From the NCBI GenBank assembly GCA_046484285.1, contig JAWOBP010000156.1, positions 2,518-66,517 on the forward strand: a stretch of DNA of 64,000 nucleotides. Direction: 5' to 3'. Shown here piece after piece: positions 45,128-57,498 of the stretch. Each line of letters begins with the position of its first letter. Position 1 is the stretch's first letter. Position numbers and translations under genes: made by a program. Under the pieces are notes generated by a model. It was not told the DNA's origin. It was given only the letters and a program-made list of their open reading frames with translations, and searched no databases. Source of the DNA: Polyangia bacterium. Lineage in GTDB: Bacteria > Myxococcota_A > Polyangia > JAAYKL01.

Positions 45128-46312
45128 ATGCGTCGAGTCAGCCGCAAGGCGGAGCAGATGCCGCCTTTTCTGGTGATGGAGGTGCTGGAGCGGGCCGGCG
45201 AGCTGGAGCGGGCCGGCGAGTCGATCGTGCATTTGGAGATCGGCGAGCCCGACTTCGACACGCCCGAGGTGGTGCGCGAGGCCGGAATCAAGGCGCTGCG
45301 CGACGGTCACACCCACTACACCCACTCGCTGGGCCGGATCGAGCTGCGCGAGGCGATCGCCGCCTGGACGCGGCGCCGCTACGGGCTGGAGGTCTCGCCC
45401 GAGCGAGTCGTGGTCACGCTGGGCAGCTCCGGGGCGATGCTGATGACCTACGCCGCGATCCTGGAGCCCGGCGACCGCGTGCTGATGACCGATCCCTGCT
45501 ACGCCTGCTACCCCAACTTCGTCAGCGCCTGCAACGCGGAGTCGGTGCGGCTGCCGGTGCGCGAGCAGGACGGCTTCCAATTCTCGCCCGACGACGTGCG
45601 AAAAGAGGTGGGACGCGGGGCGAGCGCGCTGCTGCTCAACTCACCGGCCAACCCTACCGGGATCGTCACCTCGCCCGAGCGGATGCGAGAGATCGCAGAG
45701 GAGACGCGCGGTCGCGTGCAGCTGATCTCGGACGAGATCTACCACGGCCTGACTTACGGCGAGCAGGCCCGCAGCGCGCTGGAGCTCGATCCGGACGCGG
45801 TGGTGGTCAGCGGCTTTTCCAAGCTGTTCGCGATGACCGGCTGGCGCCTGGGCTGGGCGATTTTGCCCGCGCACCTGGTGCGGCCGGTGCAGAAGCTCCA
45901 GCAGAACCTGATGATCTCGGCCCCGGACTACGCCCAGCTGGCCGGCGTGGTCGCGCTGGAGGAGGCCGACGACGACATCGAGCGGATGCGGCGCTGCTAC
46001 GACGAGCGGCGGCGGCTGGTGCTGGACCGCCTGGCCGAGATGGGGCTCGAGGTGCTGGTCGAGCCGACCGGGGCTTTCTACGTCTTCTTCAACGTCTCGC
46101 GCTACACCGGCGACGTCTACTCCTTCGCCTTTCGCCTGCTGGAGGAGGCCGGCGTGGCGCTGACCCCGGGAGTCGACTTCGGGCCCCACGGCGAGGGGTT
46201 CCTGCGGCTTTCCTACGCCAACTCGCTGGAGAACCTCGCCGAGGGGATGGACCGCTTGCAGCGTTTTCTGGCAAGCGTCGACCGAGTTGCGAGTCGACCC
46301 GCTCCGGCGTAG
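45128..46312 (+). CDS. class I/II PLP-dependent aminotransferase
   Basis: NSPANPTG, SGFSKLFAMTGWRLGW (PLP lysine), ~394 aa AAT-like fold. Confidence 0.8.
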   Translation: MRRVSRKAEQMPPFLVMEVLERAGELERAGESIVHLEIGEPDFDTPEVVREAGIKALRDGHTHYTHSLGRIELREAIAAWTRRRYGLEVSPERVVVTLGSSGAMLMTYAAILEPGDRVLMTDPCYACYPNFVSACNAESVRLPVREQDGFQFSPDDVRKEVGRGASALLLNSPANPTGIVTSPERMREIAEETRGRVQLISDEIYHGLTYGEQARSALELDPDAVVVSGFSKLFAMTGWRLGWAILPAHLVRPVQKLQQNLMISAPDYAQLAGVVALEEADDDIERMRRCYDERRRLVLDRLAEMGLEVLVEPTGAFYVFFNVSRYTGDVYSFAFRLLEEAGVALTPGVDFGPHGEGFLRLSYANSLENLAEGMDRLQRFLASVDRVASRPAPA

Positions 46313-46342
46313 AGTGATCGCGACGCTGCGAGGAGGGCGGGC

Positions 46343-46909
46343 GTGACCATCTTCGGCTTCATCCTGGTCCACCTGCTGGCCGGCGCCTCGGTGGCGTGGG
46401 CTGCGCGGGTGCAGATCCGCAACTTGCAGCGCCCGATCTTCGCCAATCGCTACTTCAGCGCGCTGATGCTGTTCGAGGCCGCGGTGCTGCTGCCCGAGGG
46501 CATCTACTTTTTGGCCTTCTACCCCGACTGGGCCTGGATGTACCTGCTCGACTCGCGAACCGTGCCGCTGGCGGTCGACGCGATGGCGCTGGTCGCGATG
46601 CCGGCCACGGCCACGATGGGCTTCATCGTCGGCTACTTCTCGGCGCGCAGCAACTCCGACTGGGTGACGCTGATGGTGATCGCCTTCGGCCTGGCCGGGC
46701 TGCTGGGGATGTTCGTCGTGGCGCGGGACAAGCTGCTGTGGGTCGGCAACTTCGAGCAGTACCACCGTGGTGTCGGCCTGGAGCCGCTGCAGTCCACCTC
46801 GCTGCTGGCCTCGCTGGTTCTCGGCTGGTGCGGCGCGGGCGTGTGCTGGGTCTACCTGGTCTACCGCTTCTCGCGCGAGGGCCGGCTCTCTGCTCGGTCC
46901 GGAGCGTGA
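46343..46909 (+). CDS. hypothetical integral membrane protein
   Basis: Five to six hydrophobic helices in 188 aa. Confidence 0.5.
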   Translation: MTIFGFILVHLLAGASVAWAARVQIRNLQRPIFANRYFSALMLFEAAVLLPEGIYFLAFYPDWAWMYLLDSRTVPLAVDAMALVAMPATATMGFIVGYFSARSNSDWVTLMVIAFGLAGLLGMFVVARDKLLWVGNFEQYHRGVGLEPLQSTSLLASLVLGWCGAGVCWVYLVYRFSREGRLSARSGA

Positions 46910-46923
46910 GCGGGAGCGGCGCC

Positions 46924-47970
46924 GTGTCCGCCACCCGCGCCGAAGCCCTCCTCGCCGCCCTGCGGCGGCCGGACGGACCGTTCCCCCGCGTGGAGCTGGG
47001 CCGCTGGCCGACCCCGGTCGAGCCGGTCGATATCCGTACCGGCGACCACACCGCGCGAGTCTGGATCAAGCGCGACGATCTCTCCTCGAGCGTCTACGGC
47101 GGCAACAAGGTGCGCAAGCTGGAGTACCTGCTGTTCGGCCCGCGCCGCGCGGTGATCACGGCCGGCGCCCGCGGCTCGCACCATTTGCTGGCAACCGCGC
47201 TGCACGCCCGCGCGCTGGGGCGGCCCAGCATCGGGATCGTGCTGGCCGATCGGCCCCGTACCACCCACGCCGACGCGGTGCACGAGCTGGTGCTGCGCTT
47301 CTGCGATCGCGTCGTCCCGCTCGAGCACTCGCCGAGCGCCATGCTAGAAACCGCGGCTGGGCTGGCCGGTGCCGCGCGGCTGTCGCTGGCCTCCCGCGGA
47401 GCAACGGCGATCCCACCCGGCGCCTCCACGCCTCTGGGAACCCTGGGCTACGTGGCGGGCGGCCTCGAGATCGCCCTCCAGGCCGCGAGGGGTGGCTGCC
47501 CGCCGCCGGCGGTCGTCTACACCGCGCTGGGCACGGGCGGCACCGCCGCCGGGCTGGCGCTGGGGCTGGCCCTGGCCGGACTGCGCACGAGGGTGGTCGC
47601 GGTGCGCGTCGCCACGCGCCTGGTGGGAAATCGACTTTACCTGCGAGCGCTGGCCGATCGCACCCTGGCGTTGCTGCGCCGCGCCGGGCTGGTGCGAAAC
47701 AGACCGCGGCCGCGCATCGAGGTCGACCACCGCTTCGTCGGAGCGGGCTACGGCCATCCCACACCGGCCTCCCGGCGGGCGATTCGCGCCGCGGCAGAGT
47801 CCTGCTCCGCCGATTTCGAGACCACCTACACCGGCAAGGCGCTGGCCGCGCTGCTGGCCGACAGTGCCGGCGCGCCCGCCTCGCAGCCGCGGATGTTCCT
47901 TGACACCTACGGCCCCATCGAAGATCTGGACAGGGGTTCGCATGAGGCGCTCGGAGGTGAACCGCGATGA
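46924..47970 (+). CDS. PLP-dependent ACC deaminase / D-cysteine desulfhydrase-family protein
   Basis: WIKRDDLSSSVYGGNKVRKLEYLL (PLP-Lys in GNKxRKLE) signature of the ACC-deaminase/DcyD family; GTG start in frame of ORF 46396..47970. Confidence 0.7.
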   Translation: MSATRAEALLAALRRPDGPFPRVELGRWPTPVEPVDIRTGDHTARVWIKRDDLSSSVYGGNKVRKLEYLLFGPRRAVITAGARGSHHLLATALHARALGRPSIGIVLADRPRTTHADAVHELVLRFCDRVVPLEHSPSAMLETAAGLAGAARLSLASRGATAIPPGASTPLGTLGYVAGGLEIALQAARGGCPPPAVVYTALGTGGTAAGLALGLALAGLRTRVVAVRVATRLVGNRLYLRALADRTLALLRRAGLVRNRPRPRIEVDHRFVGAGYGHPTPASRRAIRAAAESCSADFETTYTGKALAALLADSAGAPASQPRMFLDTYGPIEDLDRGSHEALGGEPR

Positions 47971-49004
47971 GCGACGAGCTGCAGGAACGAATCACCGCCG
48001 CGGTGCGGCGTCGTCTCGAGCGCGTCTTCGACGAGGCCTGCGCCTGCGAGCCGAGCGGTCTGTTCCCTCCGCCCGCCGGGTCGCTGCCGCTCGAGCAGGC
48101 TCGCGAGCTGACGCTGCGCTCGGGCAAGAGGCTGCGCGCCGTGCTGCTGGTCTGCGGCGCGGCTCTGTTCGACCGGGACGCCGATCGAAAGGCGGCCGTG
48201 ATCGACGCCGCGGCCGCGCTGGAGCTGCTGCACACTTACTTCCTGATCCACGACGATATCATGGACGAAGACGCCACCCGGCGCGGAGGCCCGTCGGCGC
48301 ACGTGGCGCTCGCGAGGCAAACGGGAGACGACAAGCTCGGCCGCGACCTGGCGATCCTGGCCGGCGATCTGGCGGTCGCCCTGCACGAGCAGCTGGTCGC
48401 CGGGCTGGAGGTGGACGAAGCGCGCCGCCGCACGACCGCACGCGTCTTCTCCGAGATGCATTTCGACGTCGTCCACGGCCAGACGCTCGACATGCTCGGC
48501 GGCTCCGACGCCGAGGAGGTGGCCAGCCGCAAGACCGCCAGCTACACGACCGTGGGGCCACTGGTCGCCGGCGCGGCGCTGGCCGGAGCGGGAGAGGAAC
48601 GCTTTTCGCAGCTGGCCGAGCTGGCGCGCCCGCTGGGCGTGGCCTTCCAGCTCCGAGACGACCTGCTGGGGGTCTTCGGCCTGCCCGAGGTGACCGGCAA
48701 GCCGGTGGGCACCGACCTGCGTCTGGGCAAGCGCACCTACGTGATCCAGGAGGCCCTGCGGCGCGCCTCGGCAAAGTGTGCCGCGACGATCGAAAGCGTG
48801 CTCGGGGACGGGTCGGCACCCGCCTCCGCGATCGGCGAGGTCGGCGCGCTGCTGGAGGAGATCGGCGCGCGCTCGGCCTGCGAGGAGCGGATCGAGCGGC
48901 TGGTGGGCGGCGCTCTCGAGCGGCTGGAGAGCGAGAGCTACCTGGACGAGGGCAAACGACTGCTGGCGCACGTCGGCGAGCGGCTGGCCAGGAGAATATC
49001 TTGA
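47967..49004 (+). CDS. polyprenyl (geranylgeranyl/farnesyl) diphosphate synthase
   Basis: First DDxxD (LIHDDIMDED) and second DDxxD (FQLRDDLLG) motifs; 345 aa. Confidence 0.8.
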   Translation: MSDELQERITAAVRRRLERVFDEACACEPSGLFPPPAGSLPLEQARELTLRSGKRLRAVLLVCGAALFDRDADRKAAVIDAAAALELLHTYFLIHDDIMDEDATRRGGPSAHVALARQTGDDKLGRDLAILAGDLAVALHEQLVAGLEVDEARRRTTARVFSEMHFDVVHGQTLDMLGGSDAEEVASRKTASYTTVGPLVAGAALAGAGEERFSQLAELARPLGVAFQLRDDLLGVFGLPEVTGKPVGTDLRLGKRTYVIQEALRRASAKCAATIESVLGDGSAPASAIGEVGALLEEIGARSACEERIERLVGGALERLESESYLDEGKRLLAHVGERLARRIS

Positions 49005-49897
49005 GCGGCGAGGCGGTCGGCCGCGCCGCGGGCAAGGCGATCCTGCTCGGGGAGCACGCGGTGGTCCACGGCGAGCCGGCGCTGGCAGCCGCGCTCCCGA
49101 TCGGAGTCGAGGCCGCCGCCCGCCCCGCTGCCGGTCCGCTCGCGGTCCACGTCTCGAGCTGGGACTACCGCGCCGCGATCGGCGACGGCTCGGAGGGAGG
49201 TCGCGCGCTCGAGGCGCTGGCCCTCTCGCTCGGGCTCGAACCGCGGGGCGTCGCGCTGGAAGCGCTGGCCGAGGTGCCGCCGCGGGCCGGCCTCGGGTCG
49301 TCCGCCGCGCTGGCAGCGGCCGCCGCCCGCGGGCTGATCGCGCTGGCCGGAGCCGATCCCGGCGAGGCGAAGCTGTTCGAGGCCGTCCAGGCCTCGGAGC
49401 GCGTCTTTCACGGCAACCCGTCCGGTCTCGACGCCGCCGTGGCGCTGCGCGGCGGTCTGCTGCGCTTTCGCCGCGGCGCCGAGCCGCTCGCGCTGGAGGC
49501 CGCCGTGCCGCCGCTGGTAATCTGCCATTCCGGCGAGCCCGGCCGCACGCGACTGGCGGTTGAAGCCTTCGCCCGCCGCCTGGAGTCGAGCGCGGAGGCG
49601 AAGCAAAGACTGGCGCGGATCGGAGAGCTGGTCTCAGCCGGCGAGGAGTCGCTGCTCGGCGGCGACCTCGTCTCCCTGGGGCGAGCGATCAACGAGAACC
49701 ACGAGCAGCTCGCCTGGTTCGGCGTCTCCACGCCCGCGCTCGACCGCATCTGCTCAGTGGCCCGAGAGCTGGGAGCCCTGGGAGCCAAGCTGACCGGCGG
49801 AGGCGCCGGCGGCTGCGCGATCGCGCTGGTCGAGCCGCAGCGACGCGCGAGGCTCGCGGCCGAGCTGGCCGCCGCCGGAGTGGAGGTGGTGAGGTGA
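49001..49897 (+). CDS. mvk: mevalonate kinase
   Basis: GHMP kinase: GKAILLGEHAVVHG N-terminal motif, PRAGLGSSAA ATP-binding motif; TTG start after AGGAG. Confidence 0.7.
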   Translation: MSGEAVGRAAGKAILLGEHAVVHGEPALAAALPIGVEAAARPAAGPLAVHVSSWDYRAAIGDGSEGGRALEALALSLGLEPRGVALEALAEVPPRAGLGSSAALAAAAARGLIALAGADPGEAKLFEAVQASERVFHGNPSGLDAAVALRGGLLRFRRGAEPLALEAAVPPLVICHSGEPGRTRLAVEAFARRLESSAEAKQRLARIGELVSAGEESLLGGDLVSLGRAINENHEQLAWFGVSTPALDRICSVARELGALGAKLTGGGAGGCAIALVEPQRRARLAAELAAAGVEVVR

Positions 49898-50823
49898 GGG
49901 GATCGTTGCTGGCCAGCGCTCCGGGCAAGCTGTTCCTCTCCGGCGAGTACGCGGTGCTGAGCGGCGCCCCGGCCGTGGTCACCGCGGTCGACCGGCGGGC
50001 AATGGCCTACGCCGCGAAGACGGCGCCCCCGCCCTCCCCGGTGCTCGCAGCGGTGCGCCGGGAGGTGGCGCGCCATTTCGGCGTCGCCGGCCCCGGCCAG
50101 CTGCCGTTGGTGCGGGTCGACACCTCCGAGCTGAGCCTCGGCCGGCGCAAGCTCGGCCTGGGCTCTTCCGCCGCGACCGCGGTCGCGGCCACGGCCGCGT
50201 TGCTCGCGCTAGGGGGCGCCGGCGAGCTCGGCGCCGGCGAATTGCTGGCGCTGGCGGGCGCCGCCCACCGGAGCGCCCAGCGAGGTCGCGGATCCGGAGC
50301 CGACGTGGCAGCCGCCGTCTACGGCGGGACGCTGGAGTTCTCGGCCGAGCGCGAGCCGCGGCCGCTGGAGCTGCGCGGAATCGAGCCGGTCTTCGCCTGG
50401 ACCGGGGTCGAGGCCTCGACCGCCGAGCTGCTCGCGGCCGTCGAGCGCCTCGCCGGACGGGACCCGGCCGCGCACCGCGACCTCGTCGCGCGGCTCGAGA
50501 GAGAGGCCCGCGATCTGGCCGGGGCCTACCGCGCCGGCGATGCCGCGGGCGTGATCGCCTCCTCGGCGCGTTACCGCGAGCTGATGGAGGAGCTGGGGCG
50601 CGCGGCCGGCGTCGCGATCGTGACCGCCGCCCACCGCCGGGCGGCCGAAATCGCGGAAGGGCTGGGGGGGACGGCCAAGCCGTCCGGCGCGGGAGGCGGC
50701 GACTGCGCGGTGGCGCTCTTCGCGGAAAAGAAAGCGGCCCAGAGCTTCCGCCGCGAGTGCCGCGCCGCCGGTCTCGAGCCGCTGGATCTGCGCCCGAGCG
50801 CGGCCGGCGCGACGATCGGATAG
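49894..50823 (+). CDS. phosphomevalonate kinase (GHMP family)
   Basis: APGKLFLSGEYAVL N-terminus and GLGSSAA motif typical of ERG8/MvaK2-type PMK. Confidence 0.65.
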   Translation: MRGSLLASAPGKLFLSGEYAVLSGAPAVVTAVDRRAMAYAAKTAPPPSPVLAAVRREVARHFGVAGPGQLPLVRVDTSELSLGRRKLGLGSSAATAVAATAALLALGGAGELGAGELLALAGAAHRSAQRGRGSGADVAAAVYGGTLEFSAEREPRPLELRGIEPVFAWTGVEASTAELLAAVERLAGRDPAAHRDLVARLEREARDLAGAYRAGDAAGVIASSARYRELMEELGRAAGVAIVTAAHRRAAEIAEGLGGTAKPSGAGGGDCAVALFAEKKAAQSFRRECRAAGLEPLDLRPSAAGATIG

Positions 50824-50863
50824 GCCTCGGGGAGCAAGAGGCGAGTCCTGCGCCTTGGGACAG

Positions 50864-51808
50864 CTACGCGCGACTCGGGATCGGCCGGTTTCGCGCGGGG
50901 GCTGCTCTTTCGCGGCGCATGCGCTCCACGTACATCCCGCAGTTGGACCCGATCTCGTTTTCCCGCAGGTCTCCGATCGACAAGATCGTCTCGTAGCCGA
51001 GCGACTCGAAGCTCTCGACCGCGGCGCGGCAGGCGTCCTCGTCGGCCGGATCGATCGCGCCGACCAGGCCGGAGCGACTCGCTGCGGCGGTGGGGTTGAT
51101 CGGAGTCAGCTTGACCAGGAAGCGCTCCGGGGAGAACAGCGGCGCCAGGATATCGGGCTCGAGCGGCAAACCGAGCGCCGGCGCGAAGTTGAGTGATATC
51201 TTGCGATCGCCGCTTTCGAAGAACCGATCGCCGCAGGCGGCGATCCGCTCCAGCGGCCAGGTCCGGATCGGCACCAGCCTGCGGCGCGCTTCGGGGCAGG
51301 TGGTGTGCACCGAGAACTGCATCTGGAAACGCCCCCCGCCGTACAGCTCGCGCTTGACCCGCTCCAGCTCGGAGAACCAGCGCTCCCTGCCGACCGGAGC
51401 CACCGTCGAGATGCAGGGCATCAGCCCCGGCAGCCCCAGCCCGGGCAGATCCTCGAGCGCGGCGATCACCTCGTCGTTGAGCGCCGGCTCGCCCATCCGC
51501 GCGAGCTGGACCTTGACCCGCTTCGAGATCACCTCCCCGCTCGGAAAACGACTGGCGACCAGCGCCCGCACCTGGTCCAGGATCTCCTCGCGCGTCAGCC
51601 TGCCCCTGTAGTCGCCGCCCGCGTCGCAGATCGGACAGCCGACAGGACAGCCCTTGAGCGTCGAGACGATCAGCACCCACTTCTCCTCGCGCCTCAGCGG
51701 AGGCTGGATCGACTCGACGAACTCCACCCGCGAGCCGTCGTCCAGCTCGCCGACGAAGACGCGGGCCAGCTCCTCGTTCCCGCTCGCGTCTACCACCTCG
51801 AGGCTCAT
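50864..51808 (-). CDS. radical SAM enzyme, RlmN/Cfr-like core without the N-terminal RNA-binding domain
   Basis: CPVGCPIC (CX3CX2C); segment-by-segment colinearity with RlmN (…STLKGC..C.IC.AGG..R.LT.EEI..QV… MGEP… SVHT… C-terminal NCGMY matching the methyl-carrier Cys region) but only 314 aa and Ile at the position of RlmN Cys118. Confidence 0.65.
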   Translation of the reverse strand: MSLEVVDASGNEELARVFVGELDDGSRVEFVESIQPPLRREEKWVLIVSTLKGCPVGCPICDAGGDYRGRLTREEILDQVRALVASRFPSGEVISKRVKVQLARMGEPALNDEVIAALEDLPGLGLPGLMPCISTVAPVGRERWFSELERVKRELYGGGRFQMQFSVHTTCPEARRRLVPIRTWPLERIAACGDRFFESGDRKISLNFAPALGLPLEPDILAPLFSPERFLVKLTPINPTAAASRSGLVGAIDPADEDACRAAVESFESLGYETILSIGDLRENEIGSNCGMYVERMRRERAAPARNRPIPSRA

Positions 51809-52713
51809 CGTCTCTCCTCCTCTCCCAGCACCAGCCGCACCGCGCGCGCGGCGGCTTGCAGCCCGTCGCCCACGGCGATCCCGGCCTGACCCAGCGAGCC
51901 CAGCCGCGCGTCGCCGCAGACCAGCAGCCCCAAACGCGGCTCCAGCGGCAGCGGCCCGCCTTCCCCGCGCAGCGCCGGAACCAGTCGCCCCAGCGCGGCG
52001 CGGCGCCCCAGCGCGGCCAGCAGCGCATCGACCTCAAGCAGCTCTTCGCCCGCGGGTGTCTCGACGTACAGCGCCGCTCCGCCCGCGACCGGCTCGAGGC
52101 GTCTCACCCGGCAGCGGGTGCGCAGCCGGGCCCTCGGCTCGCGGGAGAGCAGCTCGGCCAGCCGGCCGCCGGCGCGCGGCCGGTCGGCGCGCACCAGCAC
52201 GGAGACCTCGGCGCCGGCCTCGGCCAGCGCCAGCGCGCCGTCGAACGCCGCCTCGCCCCCGCCGATCACCGCCGCGCGGCGCGGCCGGGGAAACTCCTCC
52301 AGCAGCTCGCGCGCCCCTCGAAAGACGCGATCCGCCGTTTTCTCGAGACCGCCGACGCGCAGCGGCAGCGGCTCGGTTCCGGTGCACACCAGCGCGCAGC
52401 GAGCCCGCAGCTCCCCGCGCTCGGTGCGGGCGATCCAGCGATCGCCTTCCGGCTCGATCCGCGCCAGCTCCGACCGTTCCACCGAAACGTCGAAGCGCGC
52501 CAGGTGCTCGGCGAGACGGACGGCGAAGTCCGCTCCTCGCAGCGGGTGCTCCGGTCCCGGGTAGTTCTCCACCAGCCAGGCTCCGGCCACCAGACCGCCG
52601 GCGGCTCCGCTGCGATCGATCAGCACGGGCCGCACTCCGAGCCGCGCGCACTGCACCGCCGCGGAACAGCCGGCCGGACCCGCGCCGACGATCAGGATCG
52701 ACGTCTCGCGCAC
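51805..52713 (-). CDS. thioredoxin-reductase-like FAD/NAD(P)-binding oxidoreductase (no CxxC)
   Basis: GTG start (aa 143 of ORF 51805..53139); two dinucleotide-binding motifs ILIVGAGPAGCSAA and AAVIGGGEAAFDGAL; 302 aa; overlaps rSAM start by 4 nt. Confidence 0.65.
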   Translation of the reverse strand: MRETSILIVGAGPAGCSAAVQCARLGVRPVLIDRSGAAGGLVAGAWLVENYPGPEHPLRGADFAVRLAEHLARFDVSVERSELARIEPEGDRWIARTERGELRARCALVCTGTEPLPLRVGGLEKTADRVFRGARELLEEFPRPRRAAVIGGGEAAFDGALALAEAGAEVSVLVRADRPRAGGRLAELLSREPRARLRTRCRVRRLEPVAGGAALYVETPAGEELLEVDALLAALGRRAALGRLVPALRGEGGPLPLEPRLGLLVCGDARLGSLGQAGIAVGDGLQAAARAVRLVLGEEERR

Positions 52714-53366
52714 GACTCCAGCACCTCGTCGACGCTCAGCACCACCGCCACCGCGTCGGCCATCGACCGCAGCGAGGCGACGTGCAGCTCCTCGTTGCGC
52801 GAGGCGGTGGCGTCGGCCGCCACGTAGACCTCGAAGCCGCGGCAAAACGCGGAGCGGGCGGTTGTCTCGCAGCACATGTGGGTCAGAACTCCGCTGATCA
52901 GCACCTGCTCGATCTCCCGGTCGCGCAGGATCGACTCCAGGGGTGTCGACAGGAAGGCGTCGTAGGTCGTCTTGCCCACGACCGGCTCGTCCTCGAGGGG
53001 GGCCAGCCTCTCGACGATCTCGGCCTGTGGGTCGCGGGCGTCGAGGAAGCCTCCGAAAAAGCGCCCCAGCATCCCGGCGTCCCGTTCGCCCTCGTGGCCG
53101 TGCCTGGTGAACGCGACCGTCGATCCCAGCCCGCGCCACGCCGAGAGCAGCTCGGCGATGCGGGGCACGGCCGCGCCCGCGGCCGGCAGGTAGCAGGCGC
53201 CCGCCGGATCGGCGAAGTAGCGGTTGGCGTCGATCACCACAAGCGCGCAGCGGGCGGGATCGAGGCGCAAGCGGGGCCGGGGGGCGGTCTGCTTTCTAAT
53301 CTCTGCCAGCCAGCTTCCGACGCGCTTTTCGCGGTCGGCGTCGGTGATGTAGCTCTCGGTGCGCAT
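52692..53366 (-). CDS. isochorismatase-family (cysteine) hydrolase
   Basis: Start MRTESYITDAD (aa 61 of ORF); ALVVIDANRYF, VVGKTTYDAF and catalytic-Cys region VLISGVLTHMCCETTARSAF. Confidence 0.7.
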   Translation of the reverse strand: MRTESYITDADREKRVGSWLAEIRKQTAPRPRLRLDPARCALVVIDANRYFADPAGACYLPAAGAAVPRIAELLSAWRGLGSTVAFTRHGHEGERDAGMLGRFFGGFLDARDPQAEIVERLAPLEDEPVVGKTTYDAFLSTPLESILRDREIEQVLISGVLTHMCCETTARSAFCRGFEVYVAADATASRNEELHVASLRSMADAVAVVLSVDEVLESCARRRS

Positions 53367-53429
53367 CGCGGCGTCCACCCCCAAAAACGCGCGCAATCCT
53401 ACGCCCACGAGACCCGGCAGGCAAGCTCG

Positions 53430-53651
53430 CTCAACAGAGTTTTTTCGGCCCTGGACCTGACCAGGGCGAGCTACGATCTCTCGCGCCGGGTGGTCTACTA
53501 CGATCTGCCCGGGCTCTCGTTCCGCGAGTACCTCGCCTTTCGCCACGGGATCGAGCTGCCCGTCCTGGCGTTGCGCGAAATCCTAGAAAACCACGTCGAC
53601 ATCGGCGCCGACGACCGGATACCGCTCTACCTCTTCGGCTTTCTCTATTGA
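53430..53651 (+). pseudogene. internal fragment (~73 codons, no start) resembling COG1373/DUF4143 AAA-ATPase family
   Basis: High-GC3 frame LNRVFSALDLTRASYDLSRRVVYYDLPGLSFREYLAFRHGIELPVLALREILENHVDIGADDRIPLYLFGFLY-TGA; the PGLSFREYLAFRHGIEL segment resembles the P-x-SFREFL-x-F motif of that family; no in-frame start codon. Confidence 0.3.
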
Positions 53652-53679
53652 AAAGCTTCAGCTGCGGTGTCTGTCTCGG

Positions 53680-55287
53680 CTATGGTGGCGGGGCGGCTCC
53701 TACCGGGTAGTCTTCCTCGGCGGCGAAGCGCTCCTCGAGGTAGCGCATCACCGCCAGCACCTGGTCCTCGCGCCAGTGACGCCCCACGACCTGGACCCCG
53801 ACCGGCATCCCGGCGCTGCCGCGCTCCATCGCGATCGCGTCCCGGATAACGCGGTCCCGGCTCGCGGGACGGTCACTTTCCTCTTCCGCGCCCACGCGCC
53901 CGGCGGCCACCACCCCGGCCGGAAGGCCCACCAGGTTGAACAGGGCCGCGTAGAGGGCCGTGGCCGTCTCGACTCCGTTGCGGTTGCCGTCCAGCCGAAA
54001 GGCGGGCAGCGGGTGGGGCGGACAGACAAGCACGTCGACTCCGGCCCGATCCATCTCGTCGACGAACCTCATCCGGTAGCGGGTACGCTCCGCGGTCAGC
54101 CTCCAGTACTCCCGCGCGCTGCAGCGACCGGAGGCGGACAGCGCCCGTGCCGCGTACTCCTGGCCCGTGGCGCGCATCAACCCGGCAAGCATCCGGCGTA
54201 GCCAAAGAGGCGCGCCTCCCACCCGCAGAATCGCCTCCACGTCGCCGATCGGACGCTCCCCGTCCAGGGCCTCCCGAATCCAGGCTCCGCCGTCCGAGAC
54301 CAGCAGAGAGACGTACAGCCGGGCCGCGTACGCCGGGTCGGGCACGGAGAACCCGGCGACCGGGTTGCCGTTTTCCTCCAGCGCGAGCGCGGCTCGGGCG
54401 ACGACCCGGCGAATCGCCGGGCAGGGAGTGAAGTAGCCATCGTCGACGTAGGTGCCGACGCGGATGCCGTCCACCTCGGAAATCGGTCCCGTGCGCCAGG
54501 GGACCGGAGGGGTCAGGGAGCGCTGCGGCAAAGGCTCGCCGGCGAAGCAGTCCATCGCCAGCTTGAGATCGTCGACCCTTCGCGCCAGCGGACCCGGTTG
54601 GACGATGATCCCCTCGAAGCCGACCAGATCACCGACGTGACCCTCGAAAAACGGGGAGTCGTCGTTGGGCAAACGACCGCCCGTGGGCTTCAGCCCCGAT
54701 ACGCCGCAGAAATGGGACGGAATGCGCACGCTGCCGCCCATGTCGCCCCCCAACCCCAGGGGAGAGCCGCCCGCGGCGATGATCGCGGCCTCCCCGCCGC
54801 TGCTGCCGCCCGGGGTACGACCTTCGTCGAAGGGATTCTTCGCCGGCCCGTAGCGCGCGTGGCGGCACTCGTGGGAGATCAGCAGCTGGGGCACGTTGGT
54901 CTTGCCCAGGATGATCGCGCCGTTCTCCCGCAGGCGGGTCACCAGCGTACCCTGCTGGTCGAAAACCTCATCCGAGCGGTGGGCCAAACCGCAGCTGACC
55001 GGCGTGCCGCTCACGAAGAACTGGTCCTTGATCGTGACCGGCACTCCGAACAGCGGCGGCAGCTCCTCGGACGCGCCGCCCGCCCTGCGCGAGTCCGCCT
55101 CGCGGGCCTCCCTGCGAGCGCTTTCGAACAACGGCACGATCACGGCGTTGAGCCGATCGTTCAACGCCTCTATGCGAGCGATCAGCGCCTCGACGACGCC
55201 GACGGCCGTGGCCTCGCCTTCGCGGATCGCGGCGGCGATCTCCCCCGCGCCCATCTCGGCGATCTTTTCCGATGACACCTGGCACAT
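53680..55287 (-). CDS. amidase-signature family amidase
   Basis: GGSSGGEAA amidase signature, catalytic Lys/Ser region (TIKDQF...), 535 aa; start MCQVSS (aa 30 of ORF) with GGAGG RBS. Confidence 0.8.
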   Translation of the reverse strand: MCQVSSEKIAEMGAGEIAAAIREGEATAVGVVEALIARIEALNDRLNAVIVPLFESARREAREADSRRAGGASEELPPLFGVPVTIKDQFFVSGTPVSCGLAHRSDEVFDQQGTLVTRLRENGAIILGKTNVPQLLISHECRHARYGPAKNPFDEGRTPGGSSGGEAAIIAAGGSPLGLGGDMGGSVRIPSHFCGVSGLKPTGGRLPNDDSPFFEGHVGDLVGFEGIIVQPGPLARRVDDLKLAMDCFAGEPLPQRSLTPPVPWRTGPISEVDGIRVGTYVDDGYFTPCPAIRRVVARAALALEENGNPVAGFSVPDPAYAARLYVSLLVSDGGAWIREALDGERPIGDVEAILRVGGAPLWLRRMLAGLMRATGQEYAARALSASGRCSAREYWRLTAERTRYRMRFVDEMDRAGVDVLVCPPHPLPAFRLDGNRNGVETATALYAALFNLVGLPAGVVAAGRVGAEEESDRPASRDRVIRDAIAMERGSAGMPVGVQVVGRHWREDQVLAVMRYLEERFAAEEDYPVGAAPPP

Positions 55288-55410
55288 GCGCTCCTCCCTT
55301 GCTCGGAGATCCGAATGGACACCGCGGACGCCGAAAAGTTCCGACCGGGAGCAGCGAAAAAAGGCTGCGCTCACTATGCAGGGAAAGAAAGGAGGGGCGG
55401 GGGCGGGAGG

Positions 55411-57498
55411 CTACTCGTCTTCCTCGTCGGACTGGAAGGCCTCGATAACCTTCTGGGCGTTCTCGTGCGGCACCTCGTCGTAGTGGGAGAAGCCGACCGT
55501 GAAGGCGCCCCGGCCGCCGGTCATCGAGTCGAGATCCGGGGCGTACTGCAGCAGCTCTGCCATCGGCGCCTGGGCGCGGATCACCTGGTTGCGCCCGCGC
55601 GCCTCCATCCCCAGCACCTTGCCGCGCCGCGAGCTGACGTCTCCCATCACGTCTCCCATGCACTCGTCCGGCACCAACACCTCCAGGTTCCAGACCGGCT
55701 CGAGCAGGTAGGCGCCGGCCTGCTCGACCGCGACCTTGAACCCCTTGGAGCCGGCCATCTGGAAAGCGCCGTCCGAGGAATCGACGTCGTGGTACTTGCC
55801 GTCGTAGAGCGTGACCCGCACGTCGACCAGCGGGTAGCCGGCGATCACGCCGCGCGCCATGCGGCCGACGATCCCCTTCTCCACCGAGGGAATCCACTGC
55901 TTGGGAATCGCGCCGCCCACGATCTTGTTGACGAACTCGAAGCCCTCGCCCCGGGGCAGCGGCTCGACGTTGATGTAGCAGACGCCGAACTGGCCGCGGC
56001 CGCCGGTCTGCTTCTTGTGTTTGCCCTCCACGCCCTCGACCTTCTTGCGGATCGTCTCGCGGTAGGGGATCTTCGGCGGCGCCAGCTCCACGTCCACCTC
56101 GAACTTGCGCCTCAGCTTGTCGACGGTCGTCTCGATGTGGACTTGGCCCATCCCGGCGATCTGGGTCTCCTGCATCTCTGGGTCGCGGATGATCCTGATC
56201 GTCGGATCCTCCTCGGCGACTCGGTTGAGCGCCTGGCCGAGCTTGTCCTCGTCGTTCTTGTCCTTGGCCCGCACCGCGTAGGTGATGATCGGATCGATCT
56301 CCGGCAGCGAGGGGAAGACCACCTTGCGCCGCTCGTCGCAGACCGTGTCGCCGGTGGTCGTGCTCTTCAGCTTGGCGATCGCGACCACGTCGCCCGGCCC
56401 GGCCGAGTCGACGCTCTGTTGCTTCTTGCCGAGCGGCACCAGCAGCTGCCCCAAGCGCTCCTTCTCCTCCTTGTTGGAGTTGAAGAAGCCCGAGTCGGCC
56501 TCCAGCGTGCCCGACCAGACGCGCAGCACGGTCAGTGTGCCGGTGAACTTGTCCTGGATGCTCTTGAAGACCGTGCCGGCGAACGGAGCTTCGGGATCGG
56601 GCGGGCACTCGACCTCCTCCTCGCCGACCAGGCCCCTGCGCGGCGGTCGATCGGCCGGGGAGGGGTAGAGCCTGCAGATCGCATCCAGCAGCGGCTGCAC
56701 TCCGATGTTCTTTATCGACGAGGTGACGACCGCTGGAATCAGCGCGCCCGAGGCGATCGCCGCCGGCAGCGCCGCGTCGATCTCCTCCTCGGTCAGCTCC
56801 ATTGTCTCGAGGTACTTCTCCATCACTGCGTCGTCGCTCTCGGCGATCGCCTCGATCAGCGCCTCGCGCGCCGACTCGACCTGGTCGGACATCTCGGCCG
56901 GAATGTCGATCTGCTCGACCTTCTTGCCGTCGTCGCCGAAGCGGTAGGCCTTCTGCTCGAGCAGCTGGACCACGCCCGAAAGCGAATCCTCGGAACCGAT
57001 CGGTATCGTCAAAGGAGCGATGTGCTTGGAGAGCACCTCGCGGGCCCCGTCGAACGAGCCCTGGTAGTCGGCCCGCTCGCGATCCATCTTGTTGATCACC
57101 AGCAGCCGCGGCTTGTCCAGCTCCTCGGCGAGCTGCCACATCTTTTCGGTCATGACCTGCACGCCGTCCACCGCGGAGACCACCACCGCGGCGATGTCGC
57201 TGGCGGCCAGAGCGTTTCTGGCATCGAAAAAGAAGTTGTTGTCGCCGGGAGTATCCGAGATCTGGATCTTCTTCTTGTCCCACTCGACCGCGGCGAACGC
57301 GGTCGAGATCGAGTTCTGGCGCTTGACCTCCTCGGGCTCGAAATCGAACGTGGAGGTCTCGTCGAGCACGCTTCCCAGGCGAGTCGTCACGCCGGCGTCG
57401 AAGAGCATCGCCTCTCCGAGCGAAGTCTTTCCGCTGCCGCCGTGTCCCACCAGGCAGATGTTGCGGATGCTCGTCGTGTCGTACTTTTTCATGGTCAC
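55411..57498 (-). CDS. elongation factor G-family GTPase (EF-G paralog, not in str operon)
   Basis: G1 NICLVGHGGSGKTSL, G3 DTPG, NKMD; full five-domain length 695 aa; atypical G1 (GHGGSGKTS instead of AHIDAGKTT). Confidence 0.8.
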   Translation of the reverse strand: MTMKKYDTTSIRNICLVGHGGSGKTSLGEAMLFDAGVTTRLGSVLDETSTFDFEPEEVKRQNSISTAFAAVEWDKKKIQISDTPGDNNFFFDARNALAASDIAAVVVSAVDGVQVMTEKMWQLAEELDKPRLLVINKMDRERADYQGSFDGAREVLSKHIAPLTIPIGSEDSLSGVVQLLEQKAYRFGDDGKKVEQIDIPAEMSDQVESAREALIEAIAESDDAVMEKYLETMELTEEEIDAALPAAIASGALIPAVVTSSIKNIGVQPLLDAICRLYPSPADRPPRRGLVGEEEVECPPDPEAPFAGTVFKSIQDKFTGTLTVLRVWSGTLEADSGFFNSNKEEKERLGQLLVPLGKKQQSVDSAGPGDVVAIAKLKSTTTGDTVCDERRKVVFPSLPEIDPIITYAVRAKDKNDEDKLGQALNRVAEEDPTIRIIRDPEMQETQIAGMGQVHIETTVDKLRRKFEVDVELAPPKIPYRETIRKKVEGVEGKHKKQTGGRGQFGVCYINVEPLPRGEGFEFVNKIVGGAIPKQWIPSVEKGIVGRMARGVIAGYPLVDVRVTLYDGKYHDVDSSDGAFQMAGSKGFKVAVEQAGAYLLEPVWNLEVLVPDECMGDVMGDVSSRRGKVLGMEARGRNQVIRAQAPMAELLQYAPDLDSMTGGRGAFTVGFSHYDEVPHENAQKVIEAFQSDEEDE

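Follow-up and report, generated by a model that had tools for sequence, protein, structure and literature searches.

Gene content of the locus

The window analyzed in this study is a stretch of 64,000 nucleotides from a Polyangia bacterium. The original prediction placed in it an operon of four minus-strand genes, and all four open reading frames are present (Table 1). The overlaps predicted for the last three were also found: the hydrolase gene overlaps the start of the flavoprotein gene by 22 nt, and the flavoprotein stop and the start of the radical SAM (rSAM) gene overlap as ATGA. However, the amidase gene is set apart from these three by a gap of 313 bp (53367-53679).

Table 1. Genes and sequence features of the locus, with positions in the window
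Feature	Position	Strand	Size or basis
Amidase-signature enzyme	ATG 55287 to TAG 53680	minus	535 aa; PF01425, E 6e-103
AAA_14/DUF4143 ATPase gene relic, two joined fragments	53445..53651	plus	comparison with L001
Terminator-like hairpin, then T-run	53594..53613	minus	pattern match only; ~70 nt past amidase stop
Candidate promoter/5' leader of cassette, ~80 nt upstream of hydrolase start	53367..53450	minus	DNA alignment, conserved with L001
Isochorismatase-family cysteine hydrolase	ATG 53366 to TGA 52692	minus	224 aa; PF00857, E 1.5e-45
TrxR-fold FAD/NAD(P)H flavoprotein	GTG 52713 to TGA 51805	minus	302 aa
Core-only RlmN/Cfr-like rSAM gene	ATG 51808 to stop 50864	minus	314 aa; ORF list
Ile47 codon, position of RlmN resolving Cys118	51668..51670	minus	profile alignments to RlmN chains
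CX3CX2C codons C54/C58/C61, [4Fe-4S]/SAM cluster motif	51626..51649	minus	three Cys conserved
Cys290 codon, IGSNCG loop	50939..50941	minus	aligned with RlmN methyl-carrier Cys355

The amidase start codon is preceded by AAGGGAGGAG, and the gene has a GC3 of 0.87, like host genes. It had been considered a member of the operon, but tblastn found it in none of 80 related loci, including the closest relative, L001 (94% identical), where a gene for an AAA_14/DUF4143 ATPase stands in its place. The relic of that gene in the window is 93% identical to residues 130 to 184 and 83% identical to residues 388 to 405 of the intact 405-aa L001 gene. The amidase is a lineage-specific local neighbor outside the conserved cassette. 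Because the neighboring gene is divergent in L001, the cassette must start its own transcript in that locus; the conserved segment upstream of the hydrolase gene, a candidate promoter or 5' leader, showed no match to the sigma-70 consensus or to Rfam. The gap also carries a terminator-like hairpin, of a kind found at 5 sites against 1.9 expected. The flanks hold mevalonate-pathway genes, a polyprenyl synthase gene, and an EF-G paralog, and no fourth conserved neighbor was found across the cassette loci surveyed. There is no sign of a natural-product cluster or of peptide tailoring.

The three proteins of the cassette

The rSAM was found to be related to RlmN and Cfr, which were its only sequence matches in the PDB. 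Its AlphaFold2 model (pLDDT 89) matched the RlmN structures 3rfa and 6fz6 best in Foldseek (TM 0.71-0.72). However, its match to the Radical_SAM profile was below threshold, and the RlmN/Cfr models gave 30-38 bits. Scores of about 35 bits compare with cut-offs of 290-550 for these models, and the protein is therefore not an RlmN. The fold and the alignment agree with the earlier assignment: the protein is related to RlmN/Cfr but consists of the core only, has no C118, and is not a genuine RlmN. The motifs claimed for it are all present: CX3CX2C, MGEP, SVHT, the C-terminal Cys, and Ile at the C118 position, together with KLTPINPT. It is truncated at the N-terminus as predicted, but the missing part amounts to ~65-70 aa and not ~100 aa, and a match to the RlmN beta-hairpin extension persists in residues 1-37.

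About 2,900 rSAM homologs were found. The cluster cysteines are invariant in 21 of 21 aligned sequences and conserved at 90% or more of a set of 81, and none of the clade members aligned has a Cys at the C118-equivalent position. Asp62 directly follows the third cluster Cys, where RlmN has Ser, and this Asp recurs in 19 of 21 wider-clade members. The IGSNCG loop with Cys290 (locally SNCGM) is invariant in the 21-sequence alignment, and its match to C355 was obtained in part with what we take to be the E. coli RlmN sequence. In the model, residues 281-290 have a mean pLDDT of 69, below the rest, which would fit a mobile loop. From its alignment, Cys290 may be the methyl carrier, but a conserved Cys could equally be a hydrogen-atom donor. 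The family has a median pI of 5.8; the argument this offers against an RNA substrate is weak because that E. coli RlmN sequence computes to pI 6.6.

The flavoprotein matched Pyr_redox_2 and, from end to end, the TrxR profile TIGR01292 (E 6e-29; 101 bits against a cut-off of 343), and both of its dinucleotide motifs are intact. As predicted, it has no redox CxxC: the family alignment reads (F/L)YEV..L at this site, and the protein of the window has RVFRGAREL, unlike the family. Without a CxxC, it cannot be a thioredoxin reductase. Nor does the family alignment show a conserved Cys or any other residue that would be an obvious target.

The hydrolase keeps the triad Asp46-Lys132-Cys165. Its top PDB match is 3irv, an uncharacterized "cysteine hydrolase," and its nearest named relatives are the ureide and amide enzymes BiuH, RutB, and N-carbamoylsarcosine amidase, although it falls below every NCBIfam equivalog cut-off (e.g., 81 bits against 370 for BiuH). 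Isochorismatase-family hydrolases act on small amides and ureides.

Conservation of the three-gene cassette

Analysis of 80 loci by tblastn and ORF maps revealed a fixed, tightly packed order of hydrolase, flavoprotein, and rSAM on one strand. Relative to the rSAM start, the hydrolase gene lies at about -1570 to -890 and the flavoprotein gene at about -900 to 0, with the rSAM gene running from 0. A flavoprotein homolog adjoins the rSAM in 78 of the 80 loci, the other two having less than 300 bp of upstream sequence, and the hydrolase lies upstream in 65. The hydrolase is not strictly required, because it is missing from about 1 in 8 (~12%) of the loci with enough upstream sequence. The neighborhood predicted for the rSAM is thus conserved for these two partners, and across phyla and domains the rSAM is indeed co-localized with both, but the same survey gave 0 of 80 for the amidase.

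The loci cover more than 12 bacterial phyla and three archaeal lineages. The bacteria include Myxococcota, Gemmatimonadota, Krumholzibacteria, Eisenbacteria, Fermentibacteria, Cloacimonadota, Chloroflexota, Planctomycetota, Acidobacteriota, Acetothermia, and Thermotogota, and the archaea are Thermoplasmatota, Heimdallarchaeota, and Methanosarcinales. At least 577 rSAM matches were found among the species genomes scanned, and the cassette recurs in hundreds of mostly uncultured bacteria and archaea. Flavoprotein-rSAM fusions occur in L033, L024, P0241, and P0263, and the hydrolase is fused to the rSAM C-terminus in P0273, P0276, P0280, P0295, and P0311. The pairwise divergences of the three families, among which the rSAM is the most conserved, correlate with r = 0.80-0.85, and when the rSAM matrix was compared with that of each partner by Mantel test, the observed value was reached in 0 of 999 permutations. 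The three genes are translationally coupled, sometimes fused, and inherited together across phyla and domains. Our searches found no known family, riboswitch, defense system, or paper that explains them; hydrolase, flavoprotein, and rSAM form an uncharacterized cassette.

Possible function and comparison with known systems

The region 50864-53366 is very probably a self-contained module of three proteins whose parts work as a complex. The best explanation overall, which we offer tentatively, is a methyl- or methylene-transfer system driven by NAD(P)H and acting through methyl-Cys290. The flavoprotein would take reducing equivalents from NAD(P)H and pass electrons directly to the [4Fe-4S] cluster of the rSAM, replacing the general flavodoxin/ferredoxin pool; we lean towards this role as electron donor, in which direct transfer from flavin to cluster is assumed. 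One SAM would be used by the rSAM to methylate its own Cys290. A second SAM would be cleaved to a 5'-deoxyadenosyl radical that abstracts hydrogen from methyl-Cys290, and the thiomethylene radical, as it does in RlmN/Cfr, would add to an sp2 carbon in an electron-poor position of the substrate. The chances that the rSAM uses methyl-Cys chemistry appear even. Without a second Cys, the Cys-S-CH2-substrate adduct might be resolved by another base, such as the clade-specific Asp62, or by reducing equivalents from the flavin, and the hydrolase would act on the substrate or the product by stripping off an amide or ureido group. The lack of an N-terminal domain, the partnership with a hydrolase, and the acidic pI tilt the balance somewhat towards a substrate other than RNA, and a free N-heterocyclic amide of the nucleobase or cofactor type is a likelier substrate than rRNA.

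It is also conceivable, although unlikely, that the rSAM is still a C-methyltransferase acting on an adenosine or another base of tRNA or rRNA, that the flavoprotein is only its private reductase, and that the hydrolase is ancillary, with RNA recognized through partner proteins or the retained beta-hairpin extension. RlmN and Cfr are the only homologs of known function, and the high conservation across domains (mean pairwise identity of 54%) would suit a universal macromolecular target. Among the phage-borne sister subfamilies, relatives adjoin genes for RNA ligase and kinase, and in one case the relative is embedded in a tRNA gene array, an indication that at least some of the clade acts on RNA. 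However, the N-terminal domain of the RlmN/Cfr family, for which Kaminska et al. (PMC2836569) predicted a role in binding the RNA substrate, is missing, as is C118. The acidity of the rSAM family and its tight linkage and fusion to an isochorismatase-family hydrolase also speak against RNA, and a domain search detected no RNA-binding domain in any of the three proteins. A further hint against RNA is that more distant clade members carry fusions to an MTA/SAH nucleosidase and to a small-molecule transporter domain of the QueT type.

These same fusions would suit a different and slightly more doubtful reading, that the rSAM is not a methylase and that its 5'-deoxyadenosyl radical cleaves or rearranges a bond, with Cys290 as the hydrogen-atom donor. 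The cassette would then serve anaerobic salvage or breakdown of a nucleobase-like heterocycle, as for the queuine lyase QueL, by a radical step, a flavin-dependent reduction, and then amide hydrolysis. The fusions resemble by analogy the queK-qrtT-queL operon of C. difficile (PMC11477304, PMC11130926), which likewise combines a transporter, a nucleosidase, and an rSAM, the hosts are for the most part anaerobic fermenters of the sediment and gut type, the nearest named hydrolases act on ureides and amides, and an adenine phosphoribosyltransferase gene lies directly upstream in one locus, although this is a single case. However, QueL is entered only under the generic IPR006638, and the likeness is one of operon logic. 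A search for preQ1 and other riboswitches found none upstream of the cassette, of the gene with the fusion, or of nine related loci. That the RlmN C355 loop (xxCGQ/M) is conserved exactly speaks for methyl-Cys chemistry having been retained.

The obligatory linkage, the fusions with both partners, and the lack of a conserved substrate-related gene nearby would also suit an rSAM that is a maturase of the hydrolase, the flavoprotein, or its flavin, the mature pair doing a metabolic job. This is improbable, considering that the hydrolase is missing from ~12% of complete loci, that the flavoprotein offers no obvious target residue, that an accessory maturase would not usually be the best conserved of the three proteins, as the rSAM is, and that RlmN-like enzymes offer no precedent. 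Least credible of all is a four-gene operon for C-methylation and tailoring of a secondary metabolite or peptide: the four genes are close together on one strand and two adjacent amide hydrolases could suggest tailoring, but the amidase is absent from the related loci, its place being taken by an unrelated gene in the closest relative and a relic of that gene remaining in the window, the gap with its terminator-like hairpin parts it from the cassette, there is conserved sequence immediately in front of the hydrolase gene, and the surroundings show no conserved core biosynthetic gene, be it for an NRPS, a PKS, a precursor peptide, or anything else.

Compared with the class A radical SAM methyltransferases RlmN and Cfr (TIGR00048, TIGR04432; PDB 3rfa, 6fz6, 9p0p), the cassette rSAM shares the partial TIM-barrel fold (TM 0.71), the CX3CX2C motif, the SAM motifs GEP and S-x-H, the strand (I/V)NLIP/KLTPINP, the beta-hairpin extension that precedes the cluster loop, and a C-terminal Cys-Gly-Gln/Met loop that aligns with the methyl-carrier C355 of RlmN. 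Unlike them, it lacks the N-terminal helical domain, has Ile where RlmN (C118) and Cfr (C105) have their second catalytic Cys, and is partnered by a hydrolase and, obligately, by a flavoprotein. The RlmN/Cfr family is essentially absent from Archaea, according to Kaminska et al. (PMC2836569), whereas the cassette rSAM occurs in several archaeal lineages. Its closest relatives outside the family are phrog_24834 and related stand-alone core-only rSAMs found in phages and mobile elements (phrog_24834 matches at 73 bits and RlmN at ~35 bits; identity of ~26-31%). They share the signature RMGEP, K(L/I)TP, and C-terminal CG(Q/N/M/K), the lack of a Cys at the C118 position, and the Asp after the third cluster Cys, but they have no flavoprotein or isochorismatase partner and occur in phage genomes, in a tRNA array, or fused to QueT and a nucleosidase; none has been characterized.

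The flavoprotein has the two-domain FAD and NAD(P)H architecture of TrxR (TIGR01292; aligned end to end, E 1e-21) and has lost the redox disulfide, as have the TrxR-type ferredoxin/flavodoxin-NADP+ reductases (YumC-like), so that it could reduce an iron-sulfur partner. It is far closer to true TrxRs (E 1e-21) than to these reductases (E 1e-7 to 1e-8), and it differs from both groups in being always encoded beside, or fused to, an rSAM. The hydrolase shares the full-length domain and the Asp-Lys-Cys triad with the PF00857 enzymes BiuH, RutB, and N-carbamoylsarcosine amidase, and its N-terminal extension matches that of 3irv; coupling to an rSAM has not been described for any PF00857 isochorismatase-like member that we found.

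ThyX and TrmFO are flavin-dependent methylases that use methylene-tetrahydrofolate, not SAM, and no radical step. They have no homology to the cassette proteins and serve as an analogy only, but the logic is similar to that proposed here, in that a one-carbon unit at the methylene level is delivered to an sp2 ring carbon. By this analogy, and as speculation, the flavin of the cassette could also have a chemical role, its reduced form supplying the reducing equivalents that finish the methyl group.

Gene organization of the cassette and its surroundings

The four minus-strand genes that the original prediction described as one operon, and for which it proposed small-molecule or peptide C-methylation, are all present in the window, and their families are borne out by Pfam and NCBIfam. 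The last three, encoding an isochorismatase-family hydrolase, a thioredoxin reductase (TrxR)-like flavoprotein, and an RlmN/Cfr-like radical SAM (rSAM) protein, overlap as described and are called the cassette here: the hydrolase and flavoprotein genes share 22 nt, and the flavoprotein stop codon and the rSAM start codon have an ATGA in common. The G+C content of the region is about 70%.

Features in and around the cassette (positions in the window)
Feature	Position	Strand	Remarks
Polyprenyl synthetase	47967-49004	+	Pfam
GHMP kinase, mevalonate/phosphomevalonate kinase-like by appearance	~48940-49897	+	
GHMP kinase, mevalonate/phosphomevalonate kinase-like by appearance	49894-50823	+	Pfam
rSAM protein	51808-50864	-	314 aa
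TrxR-like flavoprotein	52713-51805	-	GTG start, 302 aa
Isochorismatase-family hydrolase	53366-52692	-	224 aa
Relic of AAA_14/DUF4143 ATPase gene	53445-53651	+	Two joined fragments, in the 313-bp gap
Amidase-signature enzyme	55287-53680	-	535 aa
EF-G-like GTPase	55411-57498	-	695 aa, all five EF-G domains; directly upstream of amidase

The amidase, which had been counted as a member of the operon, is outside the cassette unit. It was matched in none of the 80 related loci by tblastn, and 313 bp separate its gene from that of the hydrolase. The 94%-identical relative L001 has the flanks in common with the window (the EF-G paralogue, the polyprenyl synthase, and the mevalonate-pathway genes); there, the EF-G and hydrolase genes are separated by an AAA_14/DUF4143 ATPase gene in divergent orientation (5041-6258 of L001). 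A relic of this gene is present in the gap in the window; of its two fragments, one matches residues 130-184 of the L001 protein at 93% identity and the other residues 388-405 at 83%, and about 80 nt of the gap just upstream of the hydrolase start are also conserved with L001. Given the ATPase gene in the amidase position of L001, its relic in the window, and the conserved stretch, the amidase came by local rearrangement beside a pre-existing three-gene unit. As weak evidence, there is a terminator-like hairpin 3' of the amidase gene. We rejected the idea of foreign DNA: the GC3 of the amidase gene (0.87) is in line with that of its neighbours, so there is no compositional sign of recent import and the gene looks native.

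On the plus strand, a run of genes converging on the cassette (45128-50823) forms a mevalonate-pathway block, which also holds an aminotransferase, a membrane protein, and a PLP-enzyme-like ORF. This block is kept in L001 and in no other cassette locus, and the same is true of the gene for the GTPase, which is probably an EF-G paralogue. No canonical RlmN is encoded within the 64-kb window, which is uninformative for a piece of that size.

The cassette is a co-inherited and translationally coupled trio

About 2,900 proteins match the rSAM family; the best 120 of them have a length of about 300 aa and identities of 58-93%. When one genome per prokaryotic species was scanned with two peptide motifs specific to the family, at least 577 matches were confirmed, and a HMMER scan of 1.84 billion cluster representatives gave 151 clusters at E ≤ 1e-30. 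Many family members have been labelled "23S rRNA (adenine2503-C2)-methyltransferase" by JGI/IMG, at about 35 bits against an RlmN cut-off of 290; this is a systematic over-annotation, which can mislead metabolic reconstructions and metagenome screens for RlmN/Cfr-type genes.

More than a dozen bacterial phyla are represented among the 80 best loci, together with three archaeal lineages (Thermoplasmatota, Heimdallarchaeota, and Methanosarcinales). In 78 of these loci, the rSAM start coincides with the end of a TrxR-like ORF of about 300 aa; the other two have less than 300 bp of sequence upstream. The flavoprotein gene is in turn directly preceded by an isochorismatase-family gene in 65 of the 80, or approximately 88% of the loci in which the upstream sequence is long enough. 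The co-localization on which the original prediction depended is thus borne out for the flavoprotein and the hydrolase. Of the three proteins, the rSAM protein is the best conserved, with a mean pairwise identity of 54% (hydrolase, 42%; flavoprotein, 35%). The divergences of the three families correlate pairwise (r = 0.80-0.85), and when the rSAM matrix was compared with that of each partner in Mantel tests, the observed value was reached by 0 of 999 permutations.

Some loci go further and carry fusions. The flavoprotein and the rSAM protein share a single open reading frame in L033, a locus of Thermoplasmatota, and in L024, and the called proteins P0241 (625 aa), whose gene directly follows an isochorismatase gene, and P0263 (617 aa) show this flavoprotein-rSAM architecture. 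Five further proteins (P0273, P0276, P0280, P0295, and P0311) are rSAM-isochorismatase fusions. Such Rosetta-stone fusions argue for the physical joint action of all three proteins, and we regard the module, its spread, and its fusions as solid, while its chemistry and substrate are what we infer.

All-against-all clustering of the ORFs of at least 70 aa in the 80 loci returned these three families only, with no fourth conserved gene; other ORF clusters are not widely shared, an ABC exporter, for example, occurring in 17 loci. The ORFs just upstream of the hydrolase showed no kinship among them, and the Pfam contexts of two long cassette contigs were unrelated to one another. Three candidate partners were rejected on their distribution. 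An adenine phosphoribosyltransferase gene (524-1075) is found only in L094, the locus of the fusion P0241, where it lies directly upstream of the hydrolase gene, past the 3' part of a sigma-70 gene, and this single adjacency may be a coincidence. An AIR-synthase-related gene (AIRS family, PF00586/PF02769; 4822-5877 in L092) is divergent from the cassette only in five closely related, Krumholzibacteria-like loci (L092, L007, L009, L015, and L018) and is 70-91% identical among them, so it probably reflects one-lineage synteny. Argininosuccinate lyase was seen in two Gemmatimonadota loci.

Searched with Rfam, positions 50000-56000 of the window, a diverse set of nine cassette loci, and the sequence preceding the QueT fusion gene of L090 described below contained no riboswitch or leader RNA. 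PADLOC gave no defence-system match for the cassette proteins, bar a trivial FAD-motif one at E 6e-4, and full-text searches found no description of the cassette in the literature.

Sequence features of the three proteins and of the wider clade

The rSAM protein was correctly described in substance by the original prediction. A sequence search of PDB chains, with the single protein as with the family profile, returned only Cfr (9p0p) and RlmN (6fz6, 3rf9, 4pl1, and 5hr6). The AlphaFold model, built with a 21-sequence alignment as input, has a pLDDT of 89 and fits RlmN 3rfa and 6fz6 best in Foldseek (E 3e-14, TM 0.71-0.72); scores for the next folds, SuiB, NosL, and MqnE, are poorer by nine orders of magnitude. 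With its 314 aa, the protein is shorter than Cfr and RlmN (349-384 aa), and Pfam and NCBIfam hold no model specific to it: the only matches are the RlmN/Cfr models at 30-38 bits (cut-offs 290-550), including 35.2 bits to TIGR00048 (cut-off 290) and 32.3 bits to TIGR04432 (cut-off 550), and a sub-threshold Radical_SAM match. C54, C58, and C61, the CX3CX2C motif for the [4Fe-4S] cluster and SAM, are invariant and align with C125/C129/C132 of RlmN. The predicted replacement of the resolving Cys (C118 of RlmN) is upheld by profile alignments, in which Ile47 sits on C118; across the aligned family and clade sequences this position is filled by I, L, V, A, or T, and Cys does not occur. C290, in an invariant IGSNCG loop, aligns with the methyl carrier C355 (DIDAACGQ) of the sequence that we take to be that of E. 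coli RlmN. The N-terminal helical domain is gone, as predicted, but less is missing than the roughly 100 residues first estimated. Alignments start at positions 61-109 of the RlmN/Cfr models or chains for query residues 2-42, and residues 1-37 still align with the beta-hairpin extension preceding the RlmN cluster loop; therefore, the missing part amounts to the helical domain of RlmN, its first 65-70 residues. On these sequence comparisons, the rSAM protein probably descends from, and may work like, the class A radical SAM methylases.

Of its partners, the flavoprotein aligns over its full length with low-molecular-weight thioredoxin reductases (E 1e-21), scoring 100.8 bits against TIGR01292 (cut-off 343). 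The motifs GAGPAG (FAD), GGGEAA (NAD(P)H), and C-terminal GD...GQAGIAVGDG (FAD) are conserved. At the former CxxC site the family consensus has (F/L)YEV..L and the window protein RVFRGAREL; there is no conserved Cys anywhere in the family, in agreement with the prediction of a flavoprotein free of CxxC. It cannot reduce thioredoxin by the standard mechanism. By analogy with TrxR-type ferredoxin reductases, it could carry electrons or hydride from NAD(P)H. The hydrolase scores 155.9 bits against PF00857 (threshold 27) and stays under every NCBIfam equivalog cut-off; Asp46, Lys132, and Cys165 are each retained in 90% or more of 66 sequences, and its N-terminal extension resembles that of the uncharacterised cysteine hydrolase 3irv.

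Distant relatives of the rSAM protein score 130-190 bits against the family profile, compared with about 34-50 bits for RlmN chains, and share a signature: no Cys at the C118 position, a C-terminal Cys in CG(Q/N/M/K), RMGEP, and K(L/I)TP. An Asp directly follows the third cluster Cys in 19 of 21 clade sequences, where RlmN has Ser. Loss of C118 thus appears, from the alignments, to define a whole sister clade of RlmN/Cfr. Kaminska et al. (PMC2836569) found the RlmN/Cfr family essentially absent from Archaea, so the cassette clade was outside their set.

The distant relatives correspond to phrog_24834, annotated as "unknown function", against which the window protein scores 73 bits, above its RlmN score. 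Relatives with 26-31% identity (tblastn) occur in 25 phage records, with the annotations hypothetical protein, "prohibitin family protein", "radical SAM protein", or "RlmN". Among the carriers of phrog_24834-type genes (loci L081-L087 and L088, and the phage records), the cultured phages are Moorella MTATph1, Xanthomonas JGB6, Stenotrophomonas ANB28, Salmonella Arash, and Vibrio and Pectobacterium phages; Moorella thermoacetica, the host of MTATph1, has a clade relative as well. Such genes are common in gut phages (one 90%-identity cluster has 2,049 members), in the company of an RNA ligase, a KTI12/AAA_33-type kinase, and DNA methyltransferases, and another relative lies in a phage-like region (topoisomerase, ParB-HNH) of a contig of about 636 kb. 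In a prophage-like region of [Clostridium] innocuum (GCA_003149285.1; L096, 4653-6284), the phrog_24834 protein P0511 is encoded inside a tRNA array, with three tRNA genes upstream and four downstream, which suggests a phage-encoded function tied to tRNA or tRNA-modification precursors. In Bacilli, P0359 (also P0360) joins a QueT-type transporter domain, a C118-less RlmN-like rSAM domain, and an MTA/SAH nucleosidase in one protein; P0359 (814 aa; L090, 6001-8445; Bacilli MAG, MCQ2753177.1) has a full, bona fide nucleosidase and, by its domains, looks like a protein for the import and processing of a purine-type nucleoside. These contexts pull the substrate question both ways, towards a nucleic acid and towards a free nucleoside or base.

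Proposed function and comparison with known enzymes

We propose that the flavoprotein would pass electrons from NAD(P)H to the cluster of the rSAM protein, which would methylate its own Cys290, cleave a second SAM, and add the resulting thiomethylene radical to an electron-poor sp2 carbon. The adduct might be resolved by another base, for which Asp62 is a candidate, or by reducing equivalents of the flavin, no second Cys being involved, and the hydrolase would deamidate the substrate or the product. On balance, we lean towards a heterocycle other than RNA as the substrate; this reading is favoured by the missing N-terminal domain, the small-molecule-type hydrolase, the QueT/nucleosidase fusions in the clade, and, weakly, the acidic pI (family median 5.8), a property that does not discriminate as a test of RNA binding. 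An RNA methylase with the flavoprotein as its private reductase, to which the nucleic acid contexts of the clade would point, is possible, if on the unlikely side. A non-methylating radical enzyme of heterocycle salvage in the manner of QueL (C. difficile CD1684, UniProt Q186P0, listed only under IPR006638) has its lead in the QueT-rSAM-nucleosidase fusions, but the clade relatives inspected lie in phage or tRNA-array contexts and not with queK/qrtT, and neither a QueK/QrtT context nor a riboswitch was seen in the regions searched, so we consider it improbable.

Within the preferred reading of a non-RNA heterocycle, we also put forward, as a speculation that is much more likely wrong than right, a new mechanistic class in which a TrxR-fold flavoprotein replaces the second Cys of RlmN/Cfr, priming the cluster from NAD(P)H and supplying the reductant that releases the methyl product from the Cys290-S-CH2-substrate adduct. 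The substrate would be a free N-heterocycle deamidated by the hydrolase, and many anaerobic bacteria and archaea, as yet uncultured, would use the cassette to make or salvage a base or cofactor methylated at carbon. If so, the sister families carried by phages would direct this chemistry, in a single-Cys form, at nucleic acids or nucleosides. In the cassette family the rSAM protein is tied to an NAD(P)H flavoprotein in three ways (gene adjacency, overlap of stop and start codons, and fusion); a single-Cys rSAM protein with such a partner would be a new finish to methyl-Cys chemistry or else a radical SAM system of a rare, self-sufficient kind that brings its own reductase. The cassette is found in hundreds of species-level genomes from more than 12 phyla and archaea, so a common reaction is at stake.

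To our knowledge, RlmN and Cfr are the sole characterised radical SAM enzymes that methylate via a methyl-cysteine, and both need a second cysteine. Like them, the rSAM protein has, as judged from alignment, the CX3CX2C cluster motif and a C-terminal Cys at the methyl-carrier position (RlmN C355, Cfr C338). Unlike them, it lacks three defining features of the RlmN/Cfr class A: the second catalytic Cys, seven residues ahead of the cluster motif (RlmN C118, Cfr C105), the N-terminal helical domain, which is the predicted binder of the RNA substrate, and a score within the curated range. Its partners, in a cassette that is matched in neither Rfam nor PADLOC, are a TrxR fold devoid of the disulfide and an isochorismatase-like hydrolase. 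The flavoprotein shares both dinucleotide domains and the C-terminal FAD motif with the thioredoxin reductases of TIGR01292 but lacks the redox CxxC of their NADPH domain, and it is weakly similar to the YumC-like TrxR-type ferredoxin/flavodoxin-NADP+ reductases (3ab1, E 4e-8; 3lzw, E 2.5e-7). The hydrolase has the Asp-Lys-Cys triad of the isochorismatase-like cysteine hydrolases of PF00857.
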